Part shown: piece by piece, positions 1,592-44,700 of the stretch
Numbering within the stretch: position 1 is the first letter of the stretch
Layout of the letters: every line of letters starts with the position of its first letter
Origin: an uncultured bacterium
GTDB lineage: Bacteria > Omnitrophota > Gorgyraeia > Duberdicusellales > CBEUCJ01
Direction of reading: 5' to 3'
Length of the DNA: 64,000 nucleotides
Assembly: GCA_965541615.1 (NCBI GenBank)
Contig: CBEUCJ010000005.1
Location: 110,251-174,250 of the forward strand
The notes under the pieces: generated by a model
The model's database searches: none
What the model saw: only the letters and a program-made list of their open reading frames with translations
Told to the model about the DNA's origin: nothing
Program-made: the position numbers and the translations under genes

Positions 1592-1608
1592 ATCTAAAAA
1601 AAGGTTTG

Positions 1609-5282: not shown

Positions 5283-5371
5283 AATTTCTAAATTATAACA
5301 TTTTTCTCCACTTGTATGAAAAAGAATTTGATGGTATGATTATTTAATTTAATAAAAAGGAGGTGTTAAAA

Positions 5372-6277: not shown

Positions 6278-6293
6278 AATAACACCTCCTTTT

Positions 6294-8441: not shown

Positions 8442-8443
8442 CT

Positions 8444-8818: not shown

Positions 8819-8821
8819 AAC

Positions 8822-9658: not shown

Positions 9659-9661
9659 AAT

Positions 9662-9925: not shown

Positions 9926-9965
9926 TTTTCAAACCTCCTTTTTGAAGTCTTAAAAGTAATATTTT

Positions 9966-9994
9966 ATGATACTTTTTATATTTAAATGCGTCAA
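9966..9994 (-). promoter_or_regulatory. candidate internal sigma-70-type promoter (TTGACG-17-TATCAT) in the cheA-comFB gap
   Basis: On the minus strand: TTGACG (rc of 9989-9994), 17-nt spacer, TATCAT (rc of 9966-9971), ~35 nt upstream of the comFB-like ATG. Confidence 0.3.
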
Positions 9995-10004
9995 ATAAAA
10001 AAAT

Positions 10005-12972: not shown

Positions 12973-12981
12973 AAGAAAATT

Positions 12982-13449
12982 TTACTGTGAAAGATTGGTC
13001 CTTTTAACTTCCTCTACCTCTTCTGGAGATAAAACTTTTGCTAAGTCAATAAGGATGAGGAGTCTATCATCCAATTTTCCTATTCCTTTTAAATACTCTT
13101 GCTTTATTTGTGTAGCTATAACTTCAGGTGTCTCTTTTACATTCTCTGAAGGAAGTTTTAATACTTCTGTGACTTCATCTACTATCATTCCTACAGTATT
13201 ATTATCTACTTCTACAACGATGATCCTTGTTTTCTCTGAACGAGGATTTGATTTTAGATTTAGTTTTTTTGCTAAATCTATTACTGCTAAAACTTGCCCT
13301 CTTAGATTTACGACTCCTTCAATAAATGAAGGAGCACGTGGAATAGGTGTAATTTGTATTAATCTTACAATCTCTCTTACTTGATTGATAGGGACACCAA
13401 ACTCTTCATTACCTATTTTAAATATAACTAATTGTAATTCTTCCTTCAT
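12982..13449 (-). CDS. cheW: chemotaxis coupling protein CheW
   Basis: FGVPINQVREIV...GVVNLRG CheW fold. GGGAGGAAG RBS directly upstream. Confidence 0.85.
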   Translation of the reverse strand: MKEELQLVIFKIGNEEFGVPINQVREIVRLIQITPIPRAPSFIEGVVNLRGQVLAVIDLAKKLNLKSNPRSEKTRIIVVEVDNNTVGMIVDEVTEVLKLPSENVKETPEVIATQIKQEYLKGIGKLDDRLLILIDLAKVLSPEEVEEVKRTNLSQ

Positions 13450-15440: not shown

Positions 15441-15548
15441 TATTCTCATAATCCCCTCCTTTTTAATCTATTTCCCAATATATACAACCAAAAATTTCCT
15501 TTCACAAATTTTGCATACAAATTCAATCTTTCTTATCAATAACAAATT

Positions 15549-23727: not shown

Positions 23728-26700
23728 TTAGCTGAGGCAAGCTTTAAATTTTAAACAGAAAAGTTCACCTAACTTTTCTACTTCATAACCTTTTTCTCTT
23801 AATGCTTTTAAAAAGAGTTCAAGGTTATATTTATATCTTTCACATAGTTCTTCTAAAATTTTAATTATCTCTTTATACCTTTTTTCTATCTTTATAACCG
23901 TTGGGAAAAATTCTAAATCTATTTTGCCTTCTTCCCATCTGTAAATCGTGCATAAATTTGAAGGTAAATATATTTCTTTAAGTTGCAAAACTCCTCTGTA
24001 AATTTCATAAATACCAAAGATTAAGTCTTCTTCGGTAGGTAATGTATTTCCTTCTATTAGTATTCCTTTCTCTTTGAATACAAAAGTTAAGCTTTTCAGC
24101 TTCTTATAAATCTCAAATGGTGGAAAATGCAAAGATACATTGAATATCCTTCCAAAATCAAACTTTATATCTTTTTTATACCTTAACTCCTCAAAACTAC
24201 ATTCAATAAATTCTAAATTTTCAACTCCATAAAATCTTTTTGCAATCTCATAAGGATTAATAAGAATTTTTATTTCTTTGTTTAGTAAGATCTTCTCAGG
24301 CTCTGTCTTATCTATTATTTTAAAAAGACTTATATCTTTTAAACGCAACTTTCTATTAATCTCATTTATTAAATTAATTACTTGTTGGTAATCTAGTTCA
24401 TAAGGTGGCTTTAGTAAATTTCCTTTAAAAATTTGTTGCTCCCTTAATTCTTCTAATAAAAAAATCTCTTTCTTCTGATTAAAAACAAGCCAAAATACTC
24501 TCCAATTCTTTTCATATCTTATAGCTATCTGAGGTATAATTAAATCTATGCCATAAACTTGGAGTTGTGGGAATCTTTTTGCTAACTCTAAAGTGGTAGC
24601 AGGTACCAATAAATCATTTTCTTCATCTACACAACAACCTACCCCAATATCTACAAATGTGCCTTTAATATCTTTCCCATAATGAGCTTCAAACCAATCA
24701 TCGGCTGCTTTCAGTCTTTGAGGATAAGTAGTTAAAGGAACTGAACAGTTTTGAGGATTCAATTTGCAATTGAAAAGAATTATAGCTCCATTAAGCATGT
24801 ATAAAAGTCTTGCATAAAATAATAACTGTTCATCAAGACTTGAAAAAGTAAATTTTTGTGATTTGGGATCATATTCTACTATATGACCCCATTTATCACT
24901 TTTTATCTTAAACTCCTCAACAAATCTTGCTTGAGAAACATATTTATCAATAGAACTCATAATATATTGAATATCAACATTGCTGAAACCTTCGTTTTTT
25001 AAAAGCTTTATTACCTCTTCTGAATTTATTTTTTCAGCTGAAAAACCAGGCAGATTGGTGGCATACACACCTTTACTCGTTTTAAACATCTCTACCTTAA
25101 TTTTTAATCCTTCTTTTTTACTAAAATAATTTATAACTGAGCTTAAAAATAACAATGTTCCACCATATACAAAGATATCTATGATTCTAACTTTATTGTA
25201 ACCAGTAATTTTCTCTTTAATCTCTAACCATACTTTAAAAGCTATCTCTTTAAAACTTTTGTCCTCTTTCATTCTCAATTCAAATTCATTATTGAGCTCT
25301 TTGAAGAATCTTTCTACATTTACTTTATAGCTACCTAATCTATGTTTTTCTATACGACTCTTTAAATAACTTTTGAAAATCATATCTTCCATTTTTTTAT
25401 AAACTGATTCTTCAAACTGCTTTTTTAGAGAATTAGAAATTTCTTTTTCTTCTTCATTAGTTAAACCTATAAATTCTAAAGGGACTCCCATTTTTATTCT
25501 ACTTAAATAAAAATAAGTCTCATTTTCTGAACCTACATTTATCCCTAATAATCTAAGTATCTTTTTAGAGAGCAAATAAAACATACCATCACGCATAATA
25601 TAAATCTCTAAAGCTCTGTCTTGAGGTAACTGCCAAACTACATATGGTAATAATCCATTACATAAAACAAATACTAAACACATACTTTTGGTTTGAAAAA
25701 ACCTTTTTTGCACTATATTTTTTAATCTTTCTTTCTCAAAGTATAATTTTTTGAATTCTGGACTTTTTTTATCTAAATCTTCAGAAAGTTTCTTAAATCT
25801 TTTTTCTATTAAAGATACTATTTGATAAGTTGTAAGAGGTATCTTATTTTCAATAGCTTTTTTAACTTCAGGTTCTTTTAAAAATTCTTCAAATACTTCT
25901 AAGTATTTTTCATAAGCCCAATCTTCATCTTTTTTTAGTGGACTAGAAGAAAAAACATTATTCTTTATTAGAATAGAATTTATCCTCTTCACAATTTGTT
26001 CTACACGTTGCTTACTAATTCCAAATCTTTCTCCAATCTTTTGTAAAGTAAATTCTCTATATCTCTTTTTGAATTCTCTAAACTCTTCATAAGGAATCTT
26101 ATATTTACAGAAGGCAGTTTCAAAATCGAGTTTAGAAATTGGATGCTGGAGAAAGAATTTTCTTTTTAACCATAGTTTATAGATTTCTTTATGTCTCTCA
26201 TTTATCTTCAGACCATTTTCTTTTAACTTCTCTTCAAAAATCCTTACTGCTTCTTTGAAATCTTCTTCTATTTCTCTCTCTATTTCTTTTAAGTTAACAT
26301 TTATTCTTTCTCTATCTCTTTTTTCTCTTTCTTTAAGCAAGTTAAATAATACTCTATTTGGATTTAACTGTAATTGAAGGTCTTCTATACTTAATTCTAT
26401 CTTTTCTTTTCTTTCTTTCTCTTTTAAGTACTCTCTTATTGCTCTTTCTATAATCAGAGTAGCATATGGAGAAAACTTTATGCCTCTTTTGGGATCAAAA
26501 CTTTCTATTGCTAAAATCAAACCATGCCGGAATTTTCCAGTCCCTTTATAAGGACATCCAAAGGTCCCTATATTAATTAATTCTGGTAGTTCTTCTGGAG
26601 GTCTTTTAAATCTTTTCTTAATTACCCATTTAACTAAGGGAATATTTAAAATTATTAAAGCAATTAAAGCAGCTTTATTACCTTTGTGTAATTCCTCAAT

Positions 26701-29700
26701 AAGCTTATTTAATTCTTCTTCTTTAAGCTTTCTGTTTCCTACTACTCTTATCTGACTTCTTTGAAAATCTATTAAGTCAGGAATAATTTCTTTTATTCTT
26801 TTCCAATCACAAAAGGTATAAATTATTTCTTTTCTTTTTTTTCTTTCTAATGGTTTTATACCTGCAGCTTTTAAAGCATTATGCCAAGAACCAAAAAAGA
26901 AATAAGCATAATGAGGAACATCTCTATATCCAGCTTTCTGCCATGATACACTATTTCTTGGATCTTTAACTTCTGGAGGTGGATTTTTTAACCATTCAAT
27001 AATTTTTTCTTTTGTCCATTTTTTAACAGGAGAAGATGTTTTTTTCTCTCTAAAAATAGATACTATATCTTTACAAGAAACCTCGATCTTTCTTTCTATC
27101 TCTTGCCACAGATTTTGGGAAAGCAAATCTTTTCCTTTTTCTTTAATCGAATCAAAATTTTTCTTTATATAATTAAATCTTAATAAAAACTTTTTAATAA
27201 ACCAATCTCTGGCTTTATCTTCTAAAGAAGGATTAAATTCTCTTAAAACATTTATAAATTTTTCTAACATAAATTTTTGTTCATTAAAATCTGGTTCTTT
27301 AATAGTAAAACTACTTACAAAATCTATGTTAAATATTTTGAGAGGATTAAATTCTATTCTTAAATTTGAAGGAGATCTATCAGCTATTCCTATTAGATAA
27401 GCACCTAAAGAAGCTTCTGCTAAAGAAAAAGAAAGCTCTTTGATAAATAGTTCATCTTTAAAATAAAAAGTATAGTATTTGTAAAATTCTTCAAGATCCA
27501 TTTTGCCTACATATTCAAGGATAAAATAATCATCTTCCTCTTCAAAAGAAGGCACATAAAAACCTAAAATTTTTAAAGCTTGCATGCCTTGCTTTGCCCG
27601 GCAGTAAGGCATTTCTTTTATCACAACTCTTTTTTTACCGTGTAAAGTTTTTAATTCTATTCCTACTGTCAAACTCTCATTTTCTTTCTTTAATATACCT
27701 TTGAAAAATAAAATCTTTACATGAGAAGTGGAGTATTTTTTCAATAAAATTTCTTTAATATCTTTTAAAAGATCTTTAAAATTAAGACTTGAAGAAGCTG
27801 AGATTTTATTTAATATCTCTTCTAATGTGTAAAAAGGACAGAAGCTAAATTCTTCAATATTGTATCCATTCATTTTCAATATCTTGTATTCTCCTTCTAT
27901 CTGTTGAGCGTAAGAAGTAATTATTATTTTTTGAGAAGGCAAAATAAAAATGCCTGCTGTGTCTATTTTTGTATTTGGAGGTTCATCTATTTTTATATTT
28001 TCTTTTTTTATTCCTTGCAAGATTAAATAATCTTGAAGTCTCCTAACAAACTCTCTTTTTTCTCTTACTTTACCTACCATTAATACCTTTGTATCCTCAC
28101 TAAAAATTTCTTCATCAAAAAATATGTAATCTCTCCATTCTTCTTTTAAATTTTCTATCTGAGCTTGAGGTTTAATATGAGAAAAAAAGATCTTTTTATT
28201 TTTGAGAAAAACTATACAGATGCACTCAGTAAAGATATCTTTGAAAGGAACTTCTATCTTAAGAAAACTTGATTCATGGAAACAGATAAAATCTGAATTA
28301 GAAAATTCATAAAAATTTATTTTTCTTAATTTTTGAAGAATACTCACTAAAACTTTTTCTTTTGATTTCAATATTTTTGAATAGAGATTTTCTAAAGAAT
28401 TTATGTTAGGTATCTCTTCTTCAAAGAAATAATCATCTAATCTAATTAAAATCCCTCTCTTTTTTTCAGGAAGTCTTAAAAAGATATCTTCTTTTTCAAT
28501 CTTACCTGTAAATACAATTTTTTCTTTCTTTATCTCATAGACTGGACCAAAAGCTTCTAAAGTTAGATGAAATCTATTAGAAATTCTCTTTATCTTTTCT
28601 TCTAAATCTTTAAGTTGTGAGAAAATCTCAACACCATACTTTGCTGTAAGAGTTATTGCTATATCGATATCTGAATGAGATTTCCATTCTCCTTTTGCAA
28701 AGCTTCCAGTAATATAGTAATTTTTAATAATTCTTTCTTTTTGATAAGAATTTAAAAGATTGAGTAACTCTACAAATTTAAAAGAGATTCTTTTTAATGG
28801 AGAAGAACTAAAATGAGATGAATTTTTTACATAAAAAGATTTTACCACAAATACAGGATAACATATCTCTTTATATAAAATCTGTTCATAATATTCTTTA
28901 TACAAAATATCTCCAAAATTCCTTACAAAATTATCCAAATCTTTATCTTCATCAGAATCTTTTTTAGTGCTAAATCCTGTGATTATAAAATACTCAGTCT
29001 GGAAAAATCTTTTCATTGCAAATTCTACAGTCTCTTTGAATTGAGTTTTAGAAATGTTTATTAAAATAATATGAGGTCTTATACTTAAAGAGAGTTTTTT
29101 AAAATCTTCATTTATAAATTCTATATTTTTTACATTATTCTTAAATGCTACTTTTTTAGAAAGTTCTACAAGCTCTTTATTTATCTCTACACCATAAACT
29201 TTTTTAGCTCCTAACTTTGAAGCTATAATACATAAATCTCCTCTACCAGAACCTATATCCAAAATGATCTTTCCTTTAAAAATATTCTTAAATTTAAGCA
29301 TAACTTTGATGATAGCTATAGTAGAAGGATGTAGATACCAAGCACCTGATTGTAAGTAAGGTAAAAATATTAATCTTTTGGCAGGTTGAGCTGTGGGGGT
29401 AAAGAGTAGCCAGTCAATTACTACTAATTTTTTAGTCTCTCCTTCAAAAAGCTCTTTGTTTTCTATAAAATGAAAGATCTTATTTTTATCTGCAAAAAGC
29501 TCTCCTTTCTTTAAATCTAAAGAGATCTTTTCAAAATCTTCTTTAATTTCTAACTCTATAAACCTTATTCCTCTTTCATTTAAATTCTCTTTTACTATCT
29601 TCTTTTCAGGACCAGAACTTTTAGAGATCAGAATACATTTAACATTTCTCTCTTTTATTTTCTGAAAAGTAAAATCTAAGAATTTCTTTATCTTTTCTTT

Positions 29701-32700
29701 TATCTCTTCATTTAAATTTGAATCTCTCTCTGAAGTGAAATTAAGATGGAGTAAAGCTCCTTCTTTTTCTTCACTATAAAAAACTAAGATTATATCTCCA
29801 TCAGAAAATTTGCTTTCAGTCAAATCTTTAAAACCTCTACCCACACAGAGCATATTAGTTAAACCCGTAATAGAAGGAGAAATAGGTGTGTAAGAATCTA
29901 AACAATACTTTTTAATAGCTGAACTTGCAAAAATTACATCTTTCCAATATTTTTGCAGATAATTTTTATTTCTTAAATTTTCCAGAGTCTTTAAAATCTT
30001 TACAAAGAATTGGTAACTGCTCTTTGAAGTATTTACTTTTTGTTTAGTATTCCATCTTACTAACCAGAAAAGCTTATGGAGGAATGCAAGTGCAATTAAG
30101 TAAGGGAAAGATTCTAATTCTAAATTATTTAAAGGATGTAAAGAAAGATTTTGATAAGTATTTATTAAATTTATAAAGCTATCAAATTCTAATTTCTCAT
30201 CTATCTCATAAAGATCTGTTCTGGTCAAATCATAAGCTCTTATCTCTTCTCTTGCTGTATCAAAATCAAAGACTCCAACTACTTCTTTATTAGAGAATTT
30301 AAGATTAGACAGAGTGTAATCTCCATGGATAATAGATTTAGGTAACTTTAAATAAGTCTTTTGAAATTTCTCTTTTAGTTCTTCTATTACTTTTAATATT
30401 AAAGGATAACTTTTGATTATTAACTCTTTAAAAGGTGAATCTTTTTCTTCTTTTACTCTCTTATAATAATTTTGGAAACGAATTAACCTTTTGTCTCTTC
30501 CTCCTTTAAAATTCATCAAAGGATCACATTCTCTATACGCAGAAGCTCTTAATAAATTGCGAGGAGATAAGAGTGTATAATGGTGTAATTGAGATAGTTT
30601 CCTTAAAGCATCTTTAAATTGTGAGGAATTTAGTTCTTGCAGAGAAAGAGTTCTTCCTTCTATATAAGTATAAAGAAAATAAATATTGTTATTAAATTCT
30701 GTGAAAGGTAAATTATATTTGTTCAAAATTATTTTGGGTAAAGGAAAGTTGGGATCTTTCTTATTAAGAAAACTTATCAAATAGTATTCTAAAATAGCTC
30801 CTTTTTCATCCCAAGGAGATTTTTTAAGCACAAATTTTTTTGTTTCTGTAATGATTAATACTATTCCTGATATATTTGAATCGACGGGCTGAATCTCTTT
30901 TATCTTATCCAATTTATAATAATCTGAAACTCGCTCTGCTTCCTGTAAACTATCAAAATGACAGATTCTGTGTCTGTGAATCTTTTCTTCTCTACTGATA
31001 GATGAACTTGCTCTTTTTGCTAACTGTTTTTGGGTAGAAATCTTTGAAGTTAAATCTATTGAAAGAGGTCTTCCATCTTTATCTAAAATTGGAAATCCAT
31101 CTTTTGTTTGTTTAAATATTATTTTTATAGGTTTACCTTTTCTAACTATAACATCTACAACTGCATTAGAATAACGAGGAGATTGAAATATAACTTTTCC
31201 TCCCAAATATAACTGTCCCCAAGAATTTAAAGTAAAATTACAAATTTTATGGTTAGTTAACTTCTTTAACTCTTGTGGAGTAACTTTTTTGTAAAAATAT
31301 CTTTCTGTTTCTTTTGAATCTAAGTTGTAAATGAGACTGGTATATTCCCATTTATTCTCAACAGGCCAATAAACCTTTGTTATTATTGCTTTCTCTAAAC
31401 TCTCTCCTTTCATTAATAAATGTGCGTAAGTGCTTTTTGTCTTAGTATTTGTAATCCATTTTCTACCAGCAAAATATATGCTTTTATTTTTCAATAGAGG
31501 AACAAACTCTAACCTTAAAAGATCTTGAACAGATCTTAACAATCTCTCTAAATCTGAACAGAATATAGTAGTTAAAAATGAATCTAAAAGTTTGCCTCTG
31601 GCCTCATCATAAGCTAAAATGAGTTGAATGTACCTTTTTGCTGATATTAAATAAAGAGCAGTTGTAATACCTTTATAAACGAATCGAATGTATTCTGTTC
31701 CAGGTTCAGCATCTTTTAATTTTGCAGTTTTTTTACCATTACCTATCTTTACTCTCTTGTCACTGCTAACTCTTTCTATTAAAGCGATCTTATCTTCTGA
31801 TTTTTTTGGGTATGGATTAGCTAAAACATATCCGTATTTTCTAGCAATCTCTTTGACTTTAGATGAATCTAAAGAAGAACTTGAATTTCTTCTTTTAGAT
31901 TCTTTTCTTGCTTGGAAAACTACTCTTTCCATAATTTTTTCATTAAAATCATTATTAAAATCGATAGGACTGCTGGTCTTGTAAGAAGTAGATTTAATTC
32001 TTTCTAAAACTTCTATAGGAAAGCCTTGCGTGCGGATTTTTTTCCATATTTTATTTAACTCTTGGAATATCTCTTCTTCATTAATACTATTTATCTTTAA
32101 TGTCTTGTGTAATTTTCTTATTTGAACTTTCCATTTTTCAGGATTAAATCCTTTTAAGATTAAGAGTGTTCTTTTTACAGCTTTAACCTTTTCATCAGAA
32201 TTAGATGAGTTAATATGTGAGAGACATCTATTCAATAATCCATTGAGTTCAAAAGGATTAATAAAAGAGCCAGAGGAAAAATAGAATGAGATTAGAATCT
32301 TTTCTTTTAAAGGAAATATTAACCATCTTCTTTGGAGATAAAAATCATCTCCTTCTTTTATTACTTTAGCATTTGTATTATATTTTTTGAGATAAAAATT
32401 CAGTGTCTTAATAATTTCTTTTAACACCTTTTTATCAAAGTAACCTAAACCTACTCTTACATCTAAATCTCCAAGTAATTCGTAAGGAACTTTTCTGTCT
32501 CCTAAAGCAAGGATACTTCCAAAGAGTTCTAATTCTATGTTTAAACTGTTCTCTGTTTCTTTGAGAATATCTTTTAGCAGTCTTACATTTAAAAATTTAT
32601 CTTCAAATATAGAAGAACTGGAATTCTTTTTGAGAATCTCTTCTAACACTTTTCTCACAAGGATCTTTATATTTGTTTTTTCCTTTAACTCCTCTTGAGA

Positions 32701-35700
32701 AACAGAAAGTCTTTCAATTAAAGAATTAATCTTTTCAGAAGGATAGTTCTTAATTTCAAAGAACTTTTCCTTTATATCTAACTTAAGAGACCAACCTTCT
32801 TTTTTTAGTTGATAATGTAAATCTCTAAATCTCTCTTCAAATTCTTTCCTTTTCTCTTCAAAAAATTCTTTTTCTTTTTTCTTTTTTTCTTTTTGAAGCT
32901 TTTTTATTTTTCGGAAGAAACTTTTTGAAGATTTTCTTCTTCTCTTACATAGTTTTTGAAATACTTCTTGAAATCTCTCGTAAAATTCCTGTAAGATTTT
33001 TTTATACTCCTCATAAACCTTCTCAAACTCTTTATGGACTTCTTCAAAATCTTTACTAAATCTCTTATAAATTTCTTCAATTTCTTTTACAGGATAAAAT
33101 TTCTCTATTTCTTTTAAAATAAAGATTAAGATTATTTTCTCTTCATTTTCTTTTATCTTTTTTATTTTTTCCTCTGCATCTTTAACAAAATTCTCAAATA
33201 CCTCTACTCTTTTCTCTCCTTGAAGAGCCTTTTTAAATTTGAGAAGCTCTTCTCTTTCATTAAATAGGTACTTTATTATTTGAAAAATCTTTCTAACATT
33301 AACAGTTTGAGGTTTTTTCTTATACTTTACATCAACAACTACACGATTTCCTTTATCATCCAGTATAGGGTAACCTTCTCTATCTTCAATAAACTTTACA
33401 AAACGTTTCTTTCCATTTATTACTTTAGCCTCAACTTTAGCTTCAGGAAACTGACTAATGCTAAGCCAGTAATCTCCTACTTCTAAAATTCCCTTTTTAT
33501 CTGTTCTAATATTGGAAATAATATAGCTCTTTAACTCAGTGCCATCTGGAAGGATTAGTTTACCACAACTCAATTTTTCAAAAACACCAATTAACTCTCC
33601 TTTCTCAAAAGATTCAGGAGAGGCGTTTTCAGGTACTTTATAAATTAAAGATAATTCTTTGGTAATTGAAGGTTTTCCTTCTTCATCTTTTACTGTAACA
33701 GATAATATAAATGCTTTTTTTCCTGTAGGATTCAAAATTTTAATAATATCAGCTCTCTTATGACTGTAAAGTTTGCCAAAATTTACCCAATACTTACCAC
33801 CGAGATAAAGTAAACCACATTTATTTAAACGATAATTATGGATTTCATAATCTTCATTTAGCAGATTGAATTCATCTTCAGATAGCTTTTCCCAGAAAGA
33901 AGTTGTGTACTTTCTAATAGATTTTTTCCAAACAAGGGCAAATTCTACATCTAAATCTGTTTCTAAAGAAAATACTCTAAAAATGATCCCTTCTTTAACT
34001 ATTAATCCTACTTTCTCATTTTCGTGTGCAGCACCAAAATGTGCCCAAAATCGTGGTTTCTTAGGCAAACTACCATCGACTAAAGGTCTTCCTCCTCCTA
34101 TCCATAACATGCCTTCTTTTTTTAAGTAGGTATAAATAGTAACATCTTTATACTTAACAAATTTTCTAAAAGGAATTTTCCCAATATAAACATCAATAAT
34201 TTCTCCTGTTTTATTGTCTCTAACCTGCAAAAATTCTTTTAAGAAACTATCCTTTAAGAAAAATATTCTCATAGGTATACCGTCTTTCATCTCCAATTCA
34301 TACTCCAAGTTAGCATAAGCTTCTGACTTTATGTGGGATTTACCTAATCTTAACTCTCCACTTTTAGGAAGCTTTCCTTTAATGATTACATGCCCTAATT
34401 TTTTTATATACTCTTGCTTTTCTCTGTGAGGTATCTCATCCTTATTTATTACTTTTATTTTCTCTTTACCACCAAAAGACCTCTCAATCAATTTCTCCCA
34501 GATATACCTTCTCAATTCTTTTTTATTTAGATCTATTCCTCCTTCTTTTGGATGAAAAATTGCTTTCTGCAAAAGGATTATTCCTTTTTCCCCTTTATTG
34601 AGAAGTTCTTCTACTTTTTCTTTTGTTATCTCTTTTATAAGTGAACTAGAGGAAGTTAGCTCTTTAATTGTCTCTTCTACTCTATTGGTAATCTTAAATA
34701 AATTTAAATCATCTTCTCTTATATATCTTTTCTTTAAAAGCGCCTTTCTTATCCATTCATGCCATCTTTGCCAGTAGTCTTCACCGAACAATATTATCTT
34801 GCGCTTCCTTGTTTTCTTAGTTTGGATTAAAACGAGAATTTCAAATAAAATATCTAAAGTCCTAAAATCAGCAGGAAAGAATACAAAACTATCACTGTGT
34901 TTTGTTAAAGCTATTTTCTGTAGGAAAATATAGTTCAGTTTAAGAATTAAATTTGTAAATACTGAGAAGTTGTATCTTTTTGTGACTACTCCTACAGATT
35001 TTGCATTAATTAAATTTTCAGTTTGAGCTTTCTTTATTCCTCTGCCTAAAGCTTGATAGATTCCACTTTTAGATAAATGCAATATATTAAAATTTTTCTT
35101 AGCTAAATAAAAACTTAACTCTTCTGCACAGTTCCCATTTCCAATAGCATAAAAGACTTTATTTATCTTCTCTATTTCTTCTTTCATCATTTCTAATTTT
35201 TTCCTAATGAACAAAGAGGAAGAGGATTTCTCTGCAGAAGAAATATAAATTATAGAAAATTCTTTTGATTCTTCACTGAAAAGAGAAGGTAATAAAGGTC
35301 TCTCTGTTTTATAGATAATTTTAAAACCTGCTTTTCTGACTATTGCTGAAAGTTCTTTTAATCTGTAAAAACCTTCTGCTAAATTTTTGGTATTTTGAGA
35401 AGAGGTAAATTTAGGATTAATAATAATCAATTTACCTTTAGTTTTAAGAACCCGTTTAACTTCAAAAAGTGATTTGAAAGCATCCATATGGGGGAGAGAA
35501 TAAGGAAATATTACTACATCAAAAAAATTAGATTTAAAAGGAAGATGATGGACATCGGCTACTATTGTTTTTAAATCTTGGTTTTTGACAGCCTTTGCCA
35601 TTTCAAGTACAATATTCACACAAATAATTTGGTTATTTCTTGCAAGTTCTTTTTCTAACTCTCCTCTTCCGCTACCCACAGAAAGAATTTTTTTATTTTT

Positions 35701-38700
35701 TATTTCCCGAGATAAAAAGAAAATTAGCTCAGGCATTGAAATAACAGTGTAAAACTTCAAAAATTTAAGAGGGATTTTCTTCCAACCTTCTTTACCTATT
35801 TGTTTGTAAGCTTCATAAGCAAAAGGTGGGAAATTTTTCTTCAAGATAGAAGAAGCTCTTCCATTCTTAGAAAATTCACTGATTAACTTGCGTAATTTAT
35901 CTAATACTTTCTTTATCTCCTTTTCTTTAGGTTGAACTCCATAAGGAAAGGAGTTTAAAATCCAGGATAAAATTATTTCCTGCTCCTTTTTAGAAAGACA
36001 TCTAAACGCTTGAGTCAAAATTTCGTTTTCAAAGATGCCCTTCTTTAACTCTTCTAATCTTATCTTGTTTATTACCTCTTCTTCAACAGAGATTCTCTGG
36101 CCAGAAAGAATCTTCTTCAAAGTCAGAAGATTTCTACTATTATGGTTAATGTGACTTTCTCTTAGAGGAGCTTCTAAAAAAATATTTCTGTACAAAATTC
36201 TATTATTCTGCTTACGTAAATCTTTATAGAATCTCTTTAAATCTTCTTTAACATAATCTTGAAAGGGAAGTACTGTTTTACTATTCAACTTCAGCTCAGT
36301 ATATCTATCGACTATCTCATATAATCTTATCACTCCCTCACTTATTAAATCTTCATAATAGTCTGAAGAGGGATTAAAAATTTCAGCTACTACCCTCTTA
36401 ACCAGCCAAATATAACTCTCAACAAATAAACTCTTTGCCTTCTTATCACCCTCTTGAATTTTTCTCATTAATTCTACTTCTTCAGTGGAACTAAAAGTTT
36501 TTGGATTGTTATAATAGTTTTTTATAGTGAAAGGAACTGAAGGCTTCTTTCTTTCTTTCTCAATCCCCTGGCAAATTTCTAAATACTTTTTTGCTTTTAC
36601 AAGTAAATTTTCTCTCTCGGGGAAATCAGTCAAATTCTTTCTTAATATTCTTATTAAGTGTTTGAATTTACAGATTGCTTGCTTGTATTTCCTTTGAGAA
36701 AATAACTTTTTGCCCTTTTGATAAAGAGTTTGTATACACGACAATTGTTTTTTTAATTCTTTTTGTTGCTTTTTTAACTTTTGTTTCTCTAATCTTTTCT
36801 CTCGCTTTTCTAACTTTTCTTTTCTTCTTAATTCTTCAATATGACTCTTTGCCTTTTCAGAAAGCTCCTCTTCTTCTCTAATAGGAATCACTCTTCTTTT
36901 TCTTATACGAATTATCTCACTAAATAACTTCTTAGCTTTTCTATATCTACCTTCAGAAAGCAATTTTTCTGCTCGAGTATAGAGCTCCCTAGAAGTCTCT
37001 GATCTCAAACTCTGCAAAAGTTGAGATCTTTTTAATATCTGTCTTTTTATACTTTTTTTAACATCAACAACTAAAGGATTCCCTTCAACATCCAGTATGG
37101 GATTACCTTCTTTATCTTTAATAAACTTTACGAAACGCTTTTCTCCATCTACCACCTTAGCTTCAACTTCAGCTCCAGGAAAGTAACTAAATTTACCCCA
37201 ATAACCCCCTACATCTAAAATCCCATTAGTATCGACTTTGATATTGGAAATAACATATGTCTCTAATTTGGTGCCATCTGGAAGGATTAACTTATCACGC
37301 CTCAACTTCTCAAAAACCTCAACCAAATCTTCTTTAGCAAAAGATTCAGCAGGAGCATCTTGAGATACTGTATAAATTAAAGAAAGTTCTTTAGTAATTA
37401 AAGGTTCTCCTTTTTCATTTTTTACTGTAGCAGCTAAGATGAATGCTTTTCCCCCTGTAGGATTCAAAATTTTAATAATATCGACCCTCTTATAACTGTA
37501 AGGTGCACCAAAATCTATCCAATCCTCTCTACCACCAAGATGAAGTGAGCCATCTTTACTTAAACGATAATTGTGGATTTCATAGTCTTCATTTAGCAGA
37601 TTAAATTCATTTTCAAATAGTTTCCCCCAGAAAGAAGTTGTATACTTTTTCTCAGATTTTTTCCAAACAAGGGCAAATTCTACATCTAAATCTGTTTCTA
37701 AGGAAAATACTCTAAAGACCACCCCTTCTTTAACTACCACTGCTACCTTTTCGTTTTCATGCTCAATACCAAATTTTGCCCAATATCGGGGTTTCTTAGG
37801 CAAACTACCATCGACTAAAGGTCTTCCTCCTCCTATCCACAAAATACCTTCCTTTCCCAAATAGGTATGAATAGTAACGTCTCTATACTTATCAAATTTT
37901 CTACGGATGATTCTCCCGATATGAACATCAATGACTTCTCCTGTCTCATTATCTCTAACCTGCAAAAATTCTTTTAAGAAACTATCCTTTAAGAAAAATA
38001 TTCTCATAGGTATACCGTCTTTCATCTCCAATTCATACTCCAAGTTAGCATAAGCTTCTGACTTTATGTGGGATTTACCTAATCTTAACTCTCCACTTTT
38101 AGGAAGCTTTCCTTTAATGATTACATGCCCTAATTTTTTTATATACTCTTGCTTTTCTCTGTGAGGTATCTCATCCTTATTTATTACTTTTATTTTCTCT
38201 TTACCACCAAAAGACCTCTCAATCAATTTCTCCCAGATATACCTTCTCAATTCTTTTTTATTTAGATCTATTCCTCCTTCTTTTGGATGAAAAATTGCTT
38301 TCTGCAAAAGGATTATTCCTTTTTCCCCTTTATTGAGAAGTTCTTCTACTTTTTCTTTTGTTATCTCTTTTATAAGTGAACTAGAGGAAGTTAGCTCTTT
38401 AATTGTCTCTTCTACTCTATTGGTAATCTTAAATAAATTTAAATCATCTTCTCTTATATATCTTTTCTTTAAAAGCGCCTTTCTTATCCATTCATGCCAT
38501 CTTTGCCAGTAGTCTTCACCGAACAATATTATCTTGCGCTTCCTTGTTTTCTTAGTTTGGATTAAAACGAGAATTTCAAATAAAATATCTAAAGTCCTAA
38601 AATCAGCAGGAAAGAATACAAAACTATCACTGTGTTTTGTTAAAGCTATTTTCTGTAGGAAAATATAGTTCAGTTTAAGAATTAAATTTGTAAATACTGA

Positions 38701-41700
38701 GAAGTTGTATCTTTTTGTGACTACTCCTACAGATTTTGCATTAATTAAATTTTCAGTTTGAGCTTTCTTTATTCCTCTGCCTAAAGCTTGATAGATTCCA
38801 CTTTTAGATAAATGCAATATATTAAAATTTTTCTTAGCTAAATAAAAACTTAACTCTTCTGCACAATCATAATAGAAGCTATTTTTCTTAATATTTTGTG
38901 AACCAATGATTGCAACTGCAGGTTTTAAATTTAAAGAATAGATATTGGCTACATCTGATAATACTTTGTTCATATCTATTTTTTTAGACCTTCTTTTACA
39001 ATTTTTATCGAATAATTCCTTTATTTCAGAAAGAGAATCTTTTACAACAAAGCTTTTTAAATCTTCTTTATCTAAAAAACCTTCTTTGGCACTTTCTTCT
39101 AAAATTTTCTCTAAACCACCATAGAAATCTGTATCTAATAAAACTACAGGTACATCTTTTTCAATAACACCTTCTTTTTTAAGAGCTAATATTTCAAAAA
39201 TTTCATCTAAAGTTCCAAAACCACCTGGTAAACTTACAAACCCACACGATGATAAAACAAAAGCTAATTTTCTGCTGTAAAAATAATGAAAGAGTAAATT
39301 TAAACTCGCATAATTTTCTGTAGACTCAAAAGGAAGTCTCATTTTTAAACCTACAGTCTTTTTTGCCTCTTTTGAGACTGCTTCCATTAATCCTGGACCT
39401 CCACCAGTTACTATAAAATAATCACCACTTAGCAATCTACCTAAGTCTTTGGCTAAGTTATAGTAATAAGTGCCTTCTCTTTCCCTGGCTGAGCCAAAAA
39501 CACCAATACCTTTTTCGATCGATGATAAGACTTTATTGACTTTTTCTATCTCTTCTTTTACTTTTTTAAATCTTTGAAGTATTGAACTTGAAGATTTTGA
39601 ATCATCAATAATTGAAACTTTCTTAATAAGAATAAAAAATATCTCTTGGTCAATAAATTTCTCTATCTCTAAAGAAAACCTAAAAAGCAAATCTTTTATC
39701 TCTTCTTTTTCAGGTAATTTATCTAACGGAAAAGGAAGGAATTTCTTTAGTTTTTTATCTATAAATTCTTTTCCTTCAGGATGAGATATAATTATCTTTC
39801 CATCTTCTTTTAATACTCTAAAGGCTTTTTCTATAATCTTTTCTTTCTCTTTCAAATTAGACCAGACTGCATTAAAGAAAATATAATCTATAGAATTTTC
39901 TTCTAACTCATCTAATAAAGGAGAAACATCTTTATGATAAATCTCTAATTCGAAAATCTCATTAAATTGAGAATTTAATTTTTGATAATTTTCCTTTAGT
40001 TTCTCTATCATCTCTTTTGATAGCTCACAAGCAATTACTTTAGAAGGTCTGTATTTTGCAAAATAAGAAAATAACACTCCTGTACCTGCTCCTACATCTA
40101 AGATTACACTTTCAGGTTTAATTTGAGCTTCTTTTACTATCCTTTCTAATCTTTGCTTTAAATATGAGGGGAATCTATCTAAGCTTAAAATATCTGAAGT
40201 GTAATCAAAAAATCTTGCCTGAAGGTTGTAATACTCTTTGGTATTCTCTTTTAGTGAAGGAGGAGTTTCAACTAATTTAAGGAAAATAAGCAAATCTTTG
40301 ATTTGGGATTGAAATTTTTGAGGTAAGAACGATAACTCTATCTCATTTAAAGTCTTTCTTTTTGGAGGAGCATTGATTTTAATAACTGAAAGAAGTTTTT
40401 CTAAAATGGGCTTAGGTAAAACTTCTTTTAAATTTTCTTCTATTATTTTCAAAGCTAATCTGTACTGATTTTGAACATCTTCATAATGCCCCAGATTCTT
40501 AAACAACTGAGAATAGAAAGAAAGAATAATCTTCTTTATCTTAGAATCTATCTTTGAAGACTCAATTGGAGAAGAAGATCTTTCTAAAAATTCTTTTATT
40601 ACTTTACATTGCTTGAGTATCTCTTGTGGGGAAAATTCATTATTTATTATTACTCTTGCATATTCTTCTTCTCCAGGAAATAAATGGGTTTCAAGAAAAT
40701 AAAGAGCTCTTTTTTCTACTTGGGAAAGTTCTAAATAGTCAAAGTATCTCTCTGATTTTACCCAACGATATATGAAATTATGAATTAAATTCGCAGGTTC
40801 AGTTTTTACATACCACTTATCATCGAACTCATCTAAGAAACATCTGTATCTTAAAGCCTGTTCTCCTTCAATTATATAAATTTTATCTTTAGGAATTATG
40901 TACTCTAAGATGTCACCTGTTAAAGCGTCAATAAGTATTTTACTATCTTTTTCAATGCAAATATCTTTTAACTTAGTATTTTTTAAGTAATCTTCAACTT
41001 TTTTGGCTCTTTCAGGAGCTTTTATTTTTACTTCTTTAATTTTATTTTTCACCTCTTCTCCTACCAGTTCTATTAACCTTTTCTCTCTGATTTCAGAAGG
41101 AGCATCTAAAACCTCATAATCTAACTCCTCTTTAAAAAGTGCTCTTTTTCTTTCTTTTTCTATTTTTCTTAAATCTATTTTTAATCTATCTCTTATAATC
41201 TGTAAGTAAAAAGGAAGAACAAAAGGCTTTCCTTCAATTATATGATAGACACTAATCATAAATCTATCTATTTCAAAAGTATTATAAGGATAAGGTCTTT
41301 TGTCTGTTCTTCTGTCTTCAGGTAAAAGATATCTATCTACCTCAACAACACAAATCTTATCAGCTAAATACTTTAAATCTTTATCCATATATTCTTTTAA
41401 CTTCTTTATTAAATATCCTTTTCCAGAAGCAAATTCTCCTCCCAAAGCAATTATTAACCTTCCTTTTTTGAGTTCATACATTTTCTTTAATCTGTAAGCT
41501 AAAGTTTGAGGTGCTTCTTTTATGTTTAAATAGATGCGTTCTGCTAAATGACGTAAAGCAAACATTCTCCATTCTTTGTAAGATAAACTAAAGATACCAT
41601 TGATTATCGTAGCTGTATTCAAAATTATTGCTAAGTTATCTTCTTTTACAAAGAAAGAAAAGATACCTGCTAAAAGAGCAATTAAAGAACTCATAAATAC

Positions 41701-44700
41701 ACCTGCACCACCTATTGTTACTAATTGATGAAAACTACCTATTTTAGGATAGGTAATCCCTTTTTTTGAAATCTCTATCTTTAACCAATATCCTAACTTT
41801 AATCTGGCAACTAAACTGTGAGCAAATTCATGTAAAAAGATAGAGACCAAATATGTAAAGAACACTAAATTAATAATTTGAACAGGCTCAAATAATCTTC
41901 CAAATCGAATAAAGACCAAAACAAAAGAAATCACCAAAGCTGAGATTAATCTGTGCCAACTTAGAGCTATCTCAGAAGTATGTATTGAAGAAGAGGCTTT
42001 TTTCAGCTCTTTTGGAATATCTTGAAAATAAATTCTGGATATATTTTCTGTTATTCTCTTTACTTTGCTTACATTTTTTCTTTCCATTGCTTTCAGAATC
42101 TCTTTAAATTTTTCAGATAAGACAATTTCAAATTGCAAAGCGCAATATTTTTCTTTTCTAATTCTCCTGTAAATTTTAAAAGCTAAGTTTATGTAAAATA
42201 GAATTGAAAGAAAAGAGATAGCTATAGGAAGATTTTCTTTTTTAACTTCATAACCTATTATTGGAAAGTAATAGTGAGAAAATTTATCTTCAAAAAACTT
42301 GATTTTACCAAAATGTGAAAGGAAGGTTAAAATAATCTTTATCTCTTTTTGGAACTTTATTATTTCTTTTAAATATTTCTCCTTATCTATTTCTTTACTG
42401 AAAATTCCTTCATTGAAGAGCTCTATTCCTATCTCAAAATCTCCTTCAATAATTCCTAACTCCAACATAAAAATTAAGTTAGCAATAATTACATCTATAT
42501 GATGAGAAGTTATTATTAACTTTGGAGAGAGCTTTTCTATAGAGCTAAGTTCTTCTAACAAGAAAGATTTTGAAGAAGGATCTAAAATAATCTCTATGAA
42601 TTGATCAAAGAATATAGAATTTAAACCCCTGATATCATTGATAATCACATTAAATAATCTTTCTAAAAAGAAGGGGATCTCTTCAGAAAAGATCTCTTCA
42701 TTTACAAAATATCTGAATATAAACATATCCAAAAATAATTTTTCTCCTGAAAGAAAACTTTCTTGAAAACTCTTTGAAAAATCATTTAAAATAATTTTTC
42801 TTGTTATATAAGCTAATCTCAAAAGAGATTGAGGATCAAAACTAAATTTATTCTTTTCTAAATTCTTAAATATATCAAAGAGGATCTCAAATGGCGCTTT
42901 TTCAGAAAGTCTCAAAAGTTGTAGAGTTGCTCTTTCTCTTATTTTTCTATCCTGATTTTTTAACTTTTGAAGTAAATCATAGCAAGAAAGAGAGCTCAAT
43001 GAACTACTTGCATTTTTGGACTCTTTTCTTAAAGGAGGCAAAATTTCTTTTCTTATCAAAATATCCATAAATGCACTTAAAGCTAAAGCTGTATCTTTTG
43101 CTTGAGGAATTTCTAATAAAGTTTGAGGCCAATTCCAAAGGATAACAAAAAGATTTGAAGTAGAAAGACCACCTGTAATTGAAGCTAATTCTCTGATGCT
43201 ATTTAAAAGGGTAGCTCTTAAACTCATTATCATTTTTATAAGAGTTCCTATTAACTCAAATTCATCTTCTTTCACAAAGATCTCAACGATTTTATCTTCA
43301 ACTTTATATCTATATTTATTAAATCCTTCAAATTGCCATCTATACTCTAAGAGCTGTGGCAAAAAGAATAAAGGTCTATAACTTATCTGTGTCTCCATTG
43401 CTTTTAATGTAGAAAAAAGCTCAAAGATTTCTTTTGATAACTCTTGAAAAGCAGAAAGAAAATAGAAACTTCTGCCTATCTCTAACAATAATTCTTGAAG
43501 TTTTGAAATCTCCTCCAAACTAACATTCTGAACCCCTCTTAAATAATCTACCAATTTTATAAATTCGATTAATACTATCTCAGTTGAATCTAATAAATCA
43601 GACTGAACTTTTGGTACTTTACTTCTGATAAAATTAAATTTATTAAATACTCTTTGATAATAAGGTAAATCAAAGATAGAAGAACTGGTTTTAGAAATTT
43701 TTTCTTTTGCTTCTTTAGAAATTGTAATTTTATCTTCAATCTTTTCTTTTTTCTTTCCTTTCCTTAGAAACTCTTGGCTTTGAGATCTTTTTTGGAATCC
43801 TATTCTAAAAATAGATAAAATCTTTTGAATAGGCAAAATAGAAGAACTTGAAGAAGATAAAAGAGCTTTAAAGATTTTAAGGTAATCTAATAGATGTCTT
43901 ATACTTGAATAATTCAAAAATACATTATTTTGAGCTTCTTTTGCTCTTCTGTAAGCTTCTTTGGGATTTTTAAAGCATTCTAAAATCTTTCCTGCTGTCT
44001 CTTCAGGAGTATACTTTAATCTTCCTTCTATTTCTTTTCCTTTTACTCCATATCCATACTTATCCTCTCCTACTAAGTGTTTTGGTCCTCCTACATACCC
44101 TGCAATCACTAATTTTCTCTTACTCATACCTTCTACAATAGTTAAACCTAAACCTTCTTTTAAAGATTTCTGTAAGATGATTGTAGCCTCTCTCTGTAAA
44201 GCATTTATTATCAAAGGTGCATAATCTATGTTAATAATATAAATTTCTCCATTCCTCCAGATAGTTCCTTTAGGAATCAATTCTCTTTTCAAAGGTTTTG
44301 TCCTTCTAAGGTTTAAAGAATAGATTAATCCTTTTAGAATCTCTCCTGCTTCTGGATCGTCTTTAGCCATATTTCCTGCATAAACAAGCTGAATATTTAT
44401 ACCTTCATCCTCCAAAGCTTCTTTTGCCATCCTAAAAGCTTCTACTACTCCTTCAGGATCCTTCCAAGGATCAAATCTTGATATCTGTAGTATTAAAGGT
44501 TTATTTACATTTATTCCTAAACTCTCTAAAACATAGAAGATAAAACCTTCAGGTAAAGGTATATTTTTTGGAGATAACAGATTAATGCTTGCAGGAACAA
44601 GATATATAGGAATTTCATTTTCTAATTCTTTCAAAACAAATTCTTCAAAATGGAATATAGCTGCATCATATTCTTTAATAAAAGGTAACAGGTAATCTAC

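Follow-up and report, generated by a model that had tools for sequence, protein, structure and literature searches.

Two sigma-70-family modules lie in frame within a giant open reading frame of an Omnitrophota bacterium

A sigma factor, the protein that directs RNA polymerase to its start sites, poses the question of how one works when it lies within a megaprotein of more than 13,000 codons. In the stretch of DNA analysed here (the window, 64,000 nucleotides), the 3′-terminal 40 kb of a giant ORF is present; the ORF is stop-free, under purifying selection and of the "multi-enzyme" type known from Candidatus Omnitrophota. Table 1 gives the features, with residues numbered, as in a first-pass annotation of this DNA, from a TTG at 63867; because the frame stays open up to base 63999, the protein must be longer than the 13,379 aa counted from there. 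The frame contains one stop in 13,424 codons, compared with 569-1,575 in the other five, and 40 kb without stops in DNA of 28% G+C implies selection for read-through translation. An independently assembled sibling contig encodes the same last 4,769 aa (98.4% identity, pN/pS 0.21) and likewise carries both sigma modules in one ORF. In addition to these, Pfam models identify HPS/SIS, two TreT-GT1, GGDEF and GNAT modules, protease-like modules (CPBP, M48 and M50-like), at least four methyltransferases, three LOG domains, an APH and an NTP-transferase.

Table 1. Features of the giant ORF, in window coordinates
Feature	Position	Strand	Residues	Remarks
Giant ORF	23728..64000	minus		At least 13,423 codons; stop at 23728-23730; open at window edge
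CPBP/Rce1-like intramembrane metalloprotease module	51457..51723	minus	4049-4137	Pfam E=1.9e-18
Peptidase M48-like module	47785..48225	minus	5215-5361	HEIAH; Pfam E=3.4e-10
M50B-like module, weak	41608..41859	minus	7337-7420	Pfam E=0.036, 14 bits, under cut-off
sigB, divergent sigma-like module	35863..36507	minus	~9121-9335
Junction motif TSSP/V	27025..27039	minus	12277-12281	Directly upstream of sigA
sigA, complete unit	25948..27027	minus	12281-12640	Order: HNH_repeat, sigma2, helical linker, sigma4
HNH_repeat-like unit (PF18780)	26848..27015	minus	12285-12340	N-terminus of sigA
sigA sigma2 (regions 1.2-2.4)	26422..26736	minus	12378-12482	Pfam Sigma70_r2
Insertion CPYKGTGKFRH(G)	26521..26556	minus	12438-12449	Splits the region 2.2 helix
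sigA sigma4 (regions 4.1-4.2)	25963..26202	minus	12556-12635	Pfam Sigma70_r4
Junction motif SSSP/L	25936..25950	minus	12640-12644	Directly downstream of sigA

The ORF shares with previously described Omnitrophota giants (10.64898/2026.06.07.730766; 10.1101/2023.11.21.568195; PMC10066038) a stop-free length of more than 10,000 codons, a single chain tiled by many Pfam families (PF08241 methyltransferase, PF00534 GT1, PF00583 GNAT and others), few membrane segments, and protease domains, the last of which underlie the cleavage hypothesis in that literature. It differs in the kind of protease: C39 and S8 there, CPBP, M48 and M50-like here. Sigma factors are not mentioned in the two preprints (10.64898/2026.06.07.730766 and 10.1101/2023.11.21.568195) or in one supplement file that was searched, and in PMC10066038 the word "sigma" occurs only as a supplier's name. 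Host ORFs at 80 ordinary sigma-bearing metagenome loci had a median length of 382 aa, and the longest reached 929 aa.

The first-pass annotation had proposed two sigma-70-like modules within the giant protein, and we find exactly two, at the places it gave; a family HMM detected no third in 13,379 aa. They are two whole sigma-70-family genes that are now in-frame modules of the giant ORF. In the stronger one, sigA, the region 2 and region 4 strings originally picked out (FDPKRGIKFSPYATLIIERAIREYL and ISKQRVEQIVKRI) are both present, and both Pfam models score above their cut-offs (Sigma70_r2, 29-38 bits against 24; Sigma70_r4, 24.2-27.1 bits against 24.1), as does NCBIfam TIGR02937 (62.3 bits against 42.9, E=4e-17, profile positions 2-160 of 165). 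AlphaFold2 predicts a sigma fold for aa 12281-12640 (pLDDT 83.7) that resembles the sigmaA, sigmaS, sigma32 and WhiG structures, and all 50 of the PDB matches listed by Foldseek are sigma factors (probability 0.98-1.00). Among solved structures, sigma2 aligns with region 2 of RpoS and sigma4, which contains the helix-turn-helix TLQKIGERFGISKQRVEQIV, with its region 4.2; the tyrosine of the sigA "SPYA" motif aligns with that of the canonical "STYA" and is invariant in the family. Both the HMM scan and the fold prediction, which the first-pass annotation had named as ways to refute its proposal, thus support sigA: it is a genuine, intact sigma-70-family unit.

Like group 3 and 4 sigma-70 factors (SigF/G/E/K, FliA/WhiG; TIGR02937), sigA combines sigma2 with sigma4 and shares the signatures DLI.IG..G, FDP..G.KFS.YA and TL..IG...G.S..RV.QI, but those factors are 20-40-kDa proteins whereas the modules here sit in more than 13,000 aa, and sigA also differs in having an N-terminal HNH_repeat and two insertions. 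The 12-residue insertion annotated in region 2 is borne out by a MAFFT alignment that included canonical primary, SigK-like and HNH_repeat sigma factors: it falls between "IGTFG" and "GLILAIE", and AlphaFold renders it as a small hairpin. The second, of ~35 aa, separates regions 4.1 and 4.2 (aa 12570-12604) and is unique to sigA in the family alignment. The region 2.2 helix of canonical sigma factors touches the beta-prime clamp helices, and because of the inserts in this helix and in sigma4, core binding by sigA could be altered or lost. The N-terminal repeat, the occurrence of the sigA clade in Omnitrophota giants and the distinct SigK/E-like type of sigB had escaped the first-pass annotation. 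The repeat scores 16.5-18.1 bits on PF18780, under the Pfam cut-off of 26, and phmmer ties this stretch to multi-repeat proteins, of which three sampled (P0014, P0016 and P0019) score 137-836 bits. The same order of HNH_repeat(s), regions 1.2/2 and region 4 is found in two other fusions, P0050 (627 aa), which, unlike sigA, has a complete region 3 and lacks the insert, and P0002 (416 aa), which differs in being free-standing.

SigB is a different case. It has clear regions 1.2-2.2 but no longer the FSTYA motif of region 2.3, and its region 4 helix-turn-helix is doubtful. It matches the family HMM across aa 9121-9180 (E=4.6e-9), TIGR02937 (E=6e-10; 38.9 bits, under the cut-off) and a SigK model (E=2e-10, positions 20-216 of 227; 40.7 bits where 298.65 are needed), and it reaches 18 bits on the Pfam region 2 model, below the cut-off, with no match to the region 4 model. 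The best solved structure is SigK (PDB 8vjl, E=1.6e-5), its nearest relatives, 223 aa long, are sigma factors of the SigK/E-like type (27% identity, 91% coverage), and Foldseek matches to its AlphaFold model (pLDDT 64) are all sigma factors, weakly. Judged by these matches, sigB is truly homologous to sigma factors, though not threshold-passing. It had been annotated as a weaker copy at aa 9140-9330, a label that is accurate since the homology is statistically real but under the cut-offs; the module starts earlier (~9121) and ends at ~9335, and its identity as regions 2 and 4 holds only in part. SigB is SigK/E-like, partly degenerate and without the region 2.3 promoter-melting motif; most probably this copy is decaying or has been exapted, and has ceased to recognise promoters.

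Both modules might be gene-fusion relics, perhaps exapted to serve as helical scaffolds or as surfaces to which proteins bind, with no role in transcription initiation. The loss of FSTYA from sigB, its lack of an HMM-detectable region 4.2 helix-turn-helix and its position under every curated cut-off would fit this, as would the odd insertions in the core-binding helix and sigma4 of sigA and the giant ORF itself, which looks as if it had taken up unrelated gene modules indiscriminately. Differences from the sibling contig point the same way for sigB (5 nonsynonymous, 0 synonymous), but these counts are too small for significance, and those in sigA (3 synonymous, 2 nonsynonymous) are too few to show selection on the module. 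We nevertheless consider a relic origin unlikely overall, given the relatives of sigA. The closest, by NCBI source names, are proteins of Candidatus Omnitrophota MAGs, mostly of 2,000-4,900 aa; the clade recurs in other giant proteins of such MAGs, often as two copies, and the whole unit of repeat, sigma2 and sigma4 is kept in many independent giants. Relatives only 22-33% identical to sigA retain the G, GL.RA.E and STYA tyrosine residues of regions 2.2/2.3, and they have an insert at the same site in region 2.2, which is shorter in the members that were aligned with canonical sigmas. Decay would not keep canonical positions and the whole unit in this way, and the family profile matches bona fide primary sigma factors (E=2e-24).

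How, then, would the modules be made? Each resembles a complete gene, the giant ORF joins units that elsewhere are separate genes, and one homologue is free-standing, so that the ORF could be imagined as an operon without stop codons, in which transcription and translation start internally to yield each sigma module as a protein of its own. We regard this as very improbable. Neighbouring genes have strong GGAGG Shine-Dalgarno sites, whereas we found no internal ribosome-binding site with a start codon ahead of either sigA or sigB: the only in-frame combination of the two in 13,379 codons is at aa 8161, inside a LOG domain at its conserved GGGPG motif, and far from both modules. The first residue after the upstream sigA junction is a valine encoded by GTT, not a start codon, and the selection for read-through noted above also argues against an operon. 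Since both lack a ribosome-binding site with a start codon of their own, sigA and sigB are made within the giant chain.

The edges of sigA suggest how it might leave that chain. The motif [ST]SSP[ILV] brackets sigA exactly and is enriched more than 20-fold in the giant ORF (SSSP, 7 observed against 0.11 expected; SSP[ILV], 11 against 0.46), where its sites fall between Pfam domains; it is absent from the other 22 genes (7,164 aa). The heterogeneity of its serine codons suggests selection at the protein level. Among homologues, the motif lies on both sides of the module in P0004 and after sigma4 in P0005, occurs without tight bracketing in P0086, and is absent from the giants P0006, P0008 and P0010; it may be no more than a linker, or it may cap the domain that follows. 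The chain also carries candidate proteases, with catalytic motifs intact in all three metalloprotease-like modules (EEIIFR, FALSH and HGLWN in the CPBP/Rce1-like one; HEFAH inside a hydrophobic segment in the M50B-like one).

Our preferred reading, held tentatively and with somewhat less than even confidence, is that sigA is a latent, tethered pro-sigma freed by proteolysis. The hydrophobic segments of the protease-like modules, few in number, would anchor the megaprotein in the inner membrane (topology was taken solely from a Kyte-Doolittle scan), its bulk would be cytoplasmic, and sigA would be cut out at the flanking junctions, perhaps through the action of the same chain's CPBP, M48 or M50-like modules, and would then serve as an alternative sigma factor by binding the core RNA polymerase. 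Such release is plausible and consistent with the junction bracketing, the three metalloprotease-like modules, the missing internal start and the free-standing homologue. This last, P0002, is a gene of ~416 aa, preceded by stops in its own frame, ending in a stop ~25 aa past sigma4 and surrounded by housekeeping genes; it is 41% identical to sigA, has the same "YxDW..V..IIPD" lead-in and likewise carries the region 2.2 insert.

Bacillus provides a precedent: pro-sigmaK and pro-sigmaE are inactive, membrane-associated precursors, activated by SpoIVFB (an M50 site-2 protease), in the case of pro-sigmaK, or SpoIIGA. Common to both systems would be a sigma factor with extra polypeptide and proteolytic activation at the membrane, as proposed for sigA; in addition, the best models and structure for sigB are SigK, and an M50-like module with HExxH in a membrane segment is present in cis. 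The Bacillus pro-sequences are about 20-27 aa, whereas the extra polypeptide here amounts to thousands of residues and both ends of sigA would need cutting. Sigma-70 cores fused to other domains are also found in ECF sigmas with C-terminal or anti-sigma/TM fusions and in MzaA of the MZA anti-phage system, proteins of a few hundred to ~800 aa in which one added regulatory domain controls sigma activity. Against the MzaA model the score here is just 24.6 bits, where the cut-off is 800, and unlike the ECF anti-sigma fusions, neither sigA nor sigB is flanked by an anti-sigma domain, so the anti-sigma-like sequestration suggested in the first-pass annotation gains nothing.

Cleavage would not be needed if the modules acted while tethered, the anchored megaprotein using sigma2 and sigma4 to hold RNA polymerase and/or promoter DNA at its own surface, a possible though rather doubtful arrangement. 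The sigma2 and sigma4 hallmarks of sigA are intact, and hydrophobic, TM-like segments follow directly after sigma4 in P0009, both copies in P0010 and the second copy in P0006, so that tethered versions recur in the clade; most long Omnitrophota proteins are reported to be membrane-anchored (10.64898/2026.06.07.730766). Against this, the holoenzyme would have to form with more than 12,000 aa ahead of sigA and another 740 aa behind it, P0002 indicates that the unit works alone, and the enriched motif that sits exactly at either edge of sigA would have no explanation. If tethering were nevertheless correct, transcription could be localised beside the enzyme array in ultra-small cells, or core polymerase could be titrated.

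A more exotic fate for the modules would be export. Phage-encoded sigma factors redirect the RNA polymerase of their victim, and the megaprotein or its fragments could in principle be delivered to prey or host for the same purpose, with the nucleotide-, kinase- and methyl-transferase modules as further effectors. A predatory or parasitic life has been proposed for Omnitrophota, whose giant proteins have been linked with prey contact (PMC10066038; 10.1101/2023.11.21.568195). We consider such delivery extremely improbable: the domains are of the sort usually seen in cofactor-dependent enzymes of the cytoplasm, no signal peptide, secretion domain or adhesin was found in the 13,379 aa, and the housekeeping surroundings of P0002 also speak against it. 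If instead sigA is released by proteolysis, as we tentatively prefer, a transcription programme would be coupled to the synthesis and processing of the giant protein.

A giant multi-enzyme ORF contains two sigma-70-family genes as in-frame modules. Every large ORF in the window lies on the minus strand, and the longest one listed encodes 13,379 residues from a TTG codon at 63867, from which we count residue numbers, as did the first-pass annotation. No stop interrupts 63868-63999, and the frame is still open at base 63999; the gene therefore runs past the window, its protein exceeds 13,379 residues, and this TTG is not the true start. Over 23728-64000 the giant frame contains only its terminal stop, compared with 569-1,575 stops in each of the other five frames (G+C content is ~28%). 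With at least 13,423 codons and at least 20 distinct domain types recognized by Pfam, it has the size and tiling typical of the giant multi-enzyme ORFs of Omnitrophota (at least 10,000 residues, many Pfam families). It forms a mosaic whose pieces most bacteria encode as individual genes: HPS/SIS, two TreT-type glycosyltransferases, GGDEF, GNAT, a CPBP/Rce1-like protease, an M48 peptidase, a weak M50B-like module, several SAM methyltransferases, three LOG/"lysine decarboxylase" domains, an APH kinase, a nucleotidyltransferase and the two sigma modules. The two TreT-type modules, which resemble trehalose synthase and are 36-41% identical to one another, either arose by an ancient internal duplication or were captured independently. 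The genes 3′ of the giant ORF are ordinary chromosomal ones (TPR, radical SAM, MCPs, rhodanese, CheA/W/Y/B/R/C/D, glycosyltransferases and STT3), and no Rfam families were found in the window.

The stronger of the two modules, which we call sigA, had been proposed from sequence inspection to contain sigma-70 regions 2 and 4, and all three relevant profiles agree: it scores 29.4-38.0 bits with Pfam PF04542 (Sigma70_r2; cut-off 24, profile positions 33-70 of 71), 62.3 bits with TIGR02937 (cut-off 42.9, E=4e-17, profile positions 2-160 of 165) and, passing only marginally, 24.2-27.1 bits with PF04545 (Sigma70_r4; cut-off 24.1). The sequence strings quoted for it are present as stated. It also matches sixty solved sigma-factor chains, and its region 4.2 aligns to RpoS in solved structures. 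Given a 16-row family alignment, AlphaFold2 produced a model with a mean pLDDT of 83.7, and all 50 of the matches listed in a Foldseek search of the PDB are sigma factors (sigmaA, sigmaS, sigma32 and WhiG, with probabilities of 0.98-1.00). The low TM-scores of these matches reflect a domain arrangement that differs between the free model and the holoenzyme-bound structures. The HMM scan and the structure prediction, both set beforehand as tests that might refute the assignment, came out in its favor. Judged by its sequence and predicted fold, sigA is an intact sigma-70-family unit, one that may bind core RNA polymerase and direct promoter-specific initiation. It is not its own polypeptide, however, but is embedded in the megaprotein.

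Two inserts distinguish sigA. Alignment with primary, SigK-like and other sigma factors bore out the insertion noted earlier in region 2: about 12 extra residues (CPYKGTGKFRH) separate "IGTFG" from "GLILAIE", interrupting the region 2.2 helix midway. In canonical sigma factors this helix makes the principal contact with the beta-prime clamp helices, and the insert is therefore our main reason for caution about sigA's function. The second insert, of ~35 residues between regions 4.1 and 4.2, is predicted with good confidence to be helical and is missing from all 15 aligned family members.

Although regions 2 and 4 do lie within the segment originally assigned to sigA, its first ~60 residues are not sigma but an HNH_repeat (PF18780) unit. 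PF18780 run on sigA by itself gives 16.5-18.1 bits, under its cut-off of 26. The segment nonetheless has the features of a clade of units built from this repeat, sigma2 and sigma4: the PF18780 repeat, a "YxDW..V..I.PD" lead-in and an insert between "G..G" and "GL.RA.E". Its phmmer matches to homologues P0002-P0010, with E=2e-51 to 6e-22, cover the repeat and sigma2.

Features of the giant ORF and its surroundings (residue numbers are those of the giant ORF)
Feature	Window position	Residues	Remark
Longest listed ORF, minus strand	23728-63867	1-13,379	
sigA	25948-27027	12281-12640	HNH_repeat unit, then sigma regions 2 and 4
sigA region 4 insert	26056-26160	12570-12604	
Junction motif at sigA start	27025-27039		TSSP, then V12281; exact bracketing
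Junction motif at sigA end	25936-25950		S12640SSP, then L; exact bracketing
Nine further [ST]SSP[ILV] sites		1200, 1518, 1546, 2438, 2446, 2773, 7765, 10632, 11688	
sigB	35863-36507	~9121-9335	
CPBP/Rce1-like module	51457-51723		all three motifs: EEIIFR, FALSH, HGLWN
M48 module	47785-48225		HEIAH
Weak M50B-like module	41608-41859		HEFAH within hydrophobic segment
Direct repeat, first copy	37078-38868	8334-8930	
Direct repeat, second copy	33346-35133	9579-10174	
TreT-type module	60241-61617	751-1209	
TreT-type module	43825-45288	6194-6681	
Region with two-gene indel	13797-17246		counterpart of sibling contig L002 18397-20848

An exhaustive representative search for relatives of sigA found that its clade recurs in giant proteins and also occurs free-standing. 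P0001, from an independent JGI assembly, corresponds to the last 4,769 residues of the giant protein, is 98.4% identical to it and collinear, and carries both modules in one ORF. We rejected the 91% identity listed for P0001 as a sign of local divergence in sigA, since the two aligned directly differ at 76 of 4,770 columns, and only ~1-4 of these differences fall in sigA. In P0002-P0010 and P0086, the stretches that match sigA span the HNH_repeat and sigma2 and show 29-41% identity to it. Most lie within contig-truncated proteins of 2,000-4,900 residues, several come from Candidatus Omnitrophota MAGs according to their NCBI source names, and one 2,083-residue fragment is already auto-annotated as "sigma-70 family RNA polymerase sigma factor, partial". 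A provisional placement of the present genome in Omnitrophota follows these source names, as the window contains no marker gene. Two such modules each are found in P0005, P0006, P0007, P0008 and P0010, amid unrelated enzyme and HTH domains (5-FTHF cyclo-ligase, PALP, GNAT, TPR, methyltransferase and multiple HTH_3). P0002 (416 residues) is a complete gene standing on its own among those for DegV, H+-PPase and P-type ATPase, with in-frame stops upstream and an end ~25 residues past sigma4. P0034, called as 410 residues, was rejected as free-standing: it is open upstream to the contig start (L004 1-61), where it continues into another HNH_repeat, and is thus N-terminally truncated. Across the family, diagnostic sigma2 positions, including the invariant Tyr of "STYA", are kept at 22-33% identity to sigA, and the family profile matches primary sigma factors with E=2e-24. 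The GTDB representative genomes gave no close match; the only hit, in a Eubacteriales MAG, is to the HNH_repeat part. As a background for host-ORF length only, a generic "KFSTYA" box, which retrieves ordinary sigma genes, was located at 80 metagenome loci; the ORFs hosting these sigma2 boxes have a median length of 382 residues and a maximum of 929.

The weaker module, sigB, had been placed at residues 9140-9330. Its homology to sigma factors is clear statistically (TIGR02937 E=6e-10), but every curated cut-off is missed, and it starts ~20 residues further upstream, opening with a typical region 1.2 ("NPKTFSSTEEVELMRKIQEGDKKAK"). It scores 38.9 bits with TIGR02937 (cut-off 42.9) and 18.3 bits with Pfam r2 (cut-off 24), and Pfam r4 gives no match. 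The SigK model matches with E=2e-10 over 20-216 of its 227 positions, although the 39-41 bits obtained with SigK models are far from the 252-299 at which a SigK equivalog is called; the family HMM gives E=4.6e-9 and the PDB SigK entry 8vjl 1.6e-5. The nearest relatives of sigB are free-standing 223-residue SigK/E-like sigma factors (27% identity over 91% coverage). Its spacing is canonical, without an insert. The region 2.3 motif (F-S/T-T-Y-A) is lost, with "LPFQDY" in its place and the register shifted, and neither the region 4.2 recognition helix nor its HTH can be recognized from sequence. The predicted model is mediocre (pLDDT 64) and matches sigma structures only, with its sigma2 part giving TM-scores of 0.67-0.83 to isolated sigma2 domains, but this is a weak test of the fold because the alignment given to AlphaFold was made of sigma factors. 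As read from these changes, sigB is partly degenerate. That the sigma modules are relics, or have been exapted, is the most likely state of affairs for sigB; as an account of the modules overall it appears improbable.

The two modules do not match one another in a composition-corrected self-BLAST and are therefore not recent duplicates; the self-similarity reported by uncorrected self-BLAST was rejected, as that search gave dozens of spurious K/E-rich matches. The family HMM found no third sigma module in the 13,379 residues. A direct repeat lies on either side of sigB, its first ~900 nt 99-100% identical and the remainder falling to 77-84%, which suggests a recent duplication or gene conversion. 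The sibling contig starts within the first copy, as would be expected had the assembly broken at this repeat.

It is very unlikely that the modules are made separately, by internal initiation. Whereas neighboring genes have strong GGAGG Shine-Dalgarno sites, the giant ORF has a single in-frame start with such a site, at residue 8161 within a conserved LOG motif, and no Shine-Dalgarno site with a start codon was found near sigA, arguing that the modules are translated within the megaprotein. Comparison with the sibling contig gives a pN/pS of 0.21 over 4,767 codons, implying that the giant frame is under purifying selection; the differences within sigA (3 synonymous, 2 nonsynonymous) and sigB (0 and 5) are too few to judge the modules. 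Outside the giant ORF, a 657-residue MCP adjoins CheW directly in the sibling, and the rhodanese (565 residues) and second MCP (550 residues) are missing, so the strains differ by a two-gene indel.

The motif [ST]SSP[ILV], which brackets sigA exactly, occurs at ~11 sites in the giant ORF, a more than 20-fold enrichment (SSSP is found 7 times vs 0.11 expected, and SSP[ILV] 11 times vs 0.46 expected), and at none in the other 22 genes of the window (7,164 residues). The sites lie between Pfam domains, and their mixed serine codons point to selection at the protein level. Of the homologues, P0004 carries the motif on both sides of its module, P0005 has it after sigma4, and P0086 shows a 40-fold enrichment; P0006, P0008 and P0010 lack it. 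We regard it as a candidate linker or processing-site code. The same chain carries three metalloprotease-like modules, all with intact catalytic motifs. Tentatively, and at somewhat less than even confidence, we read sigA as a latent, tethered sigma factor that would be excised at the flanking junctions, perhaps by the protease modules acting in cis. This reading draws on analogy with pro-sigmaK and SpoIVFB, a precedent for sigma activation. Unlike a pro-sigmaK-type precursor with its cognate M50 protease, the giant ORF has an M50B-like module that reaches only 14 bits against a cut-off of 26. It also differs from sigma factors with a fused anti-sigma domain or extension: within ~490-740 residues on each side of sigA and sigB, Pfam at E≤1 finds no anti-sigma or regulatory extension, only NTP-transferase, kinase-like, methyltransferase, LOG and TPR matches.

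The junction motif may instead be a linker. That the sigma modules act while tethered is an alternative we consider doubtful. Hydrophobic, membrane-helix-like segments lie ~30-60 residues past the sigma unit in P0009 (residues ~730-790), P0010 (both modules) and P0006 (second module), so membrane-tethered versions of the clade seem common. In the giant protein, no such segment lies beside either sigma module; the sole candidate, residues 12398-12416, is the amphipathic region 2.1 helix. A hydrophobicity scan, the sole basis for topology, finds strongly hydrophobic stretches in the 13,379 residues only in the CPBP and M50-like regions.

Excision of sigA might be part of something broader. Set beside a virus-style polyprotein, the giant ORF has an enriched, ORF-specific motif marking candidate cleavage sites, and protease modules with intact motifs that might cut them. 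We think it unlikely, if worth stating, that this is a true cellular polyprotein, in which motif-delimited units, including the complete HNH_repeat-sigma factor, would be cut out by membrane metalloprotease modules of the same chain, so that making or processing the megaprotein would turn on a sigma-dependent transcription programme of its own. A more speculative variant, in which the released sigma would be an effector acting on the RNA polymerase of prey cells, strikes us as barely plausible.

Giant ORFs are known in Omnitrophota (PMC10066038; 10.1101/2023.11.21.568195), and a preprint from 2026, which counts 5,761 Omnitrophota proteins of at least 10,000 residues, describes a "multi-enzyme metabolic cluster" class whose domains are of the kinds seen in this ORF (10.64898/2026.06.07.730766). 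In this literature, C39 and S8 peptidases have prompted the proposal of cleavage into several products. Sigma factors are not mentioned in these three works, and we found no literature that places them in giant proteins or polyproteins of bacteria. Here a known protein family sits in a known giant-gene class; we did not find the combination, or the junction motif, described.

Sigma factors are normally small and diffusible, and their availability sets which genes a bacterium transcribes. In this organism a complete one, as predicted, is built into a megaprotein exceeding 13,000 residues, and relatives often have two. This would mean either that regulation relies on freeing the factor from a precursor, at a scale without precedent, or that RNA polymerase is recruited to a membrane-anchored enzyme array. 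For the question of whether the giant genes of Omnitrophota make one protein or many, sigA may offer a handle, with a known size, an assayable activity and a flanking candidate processing motif.
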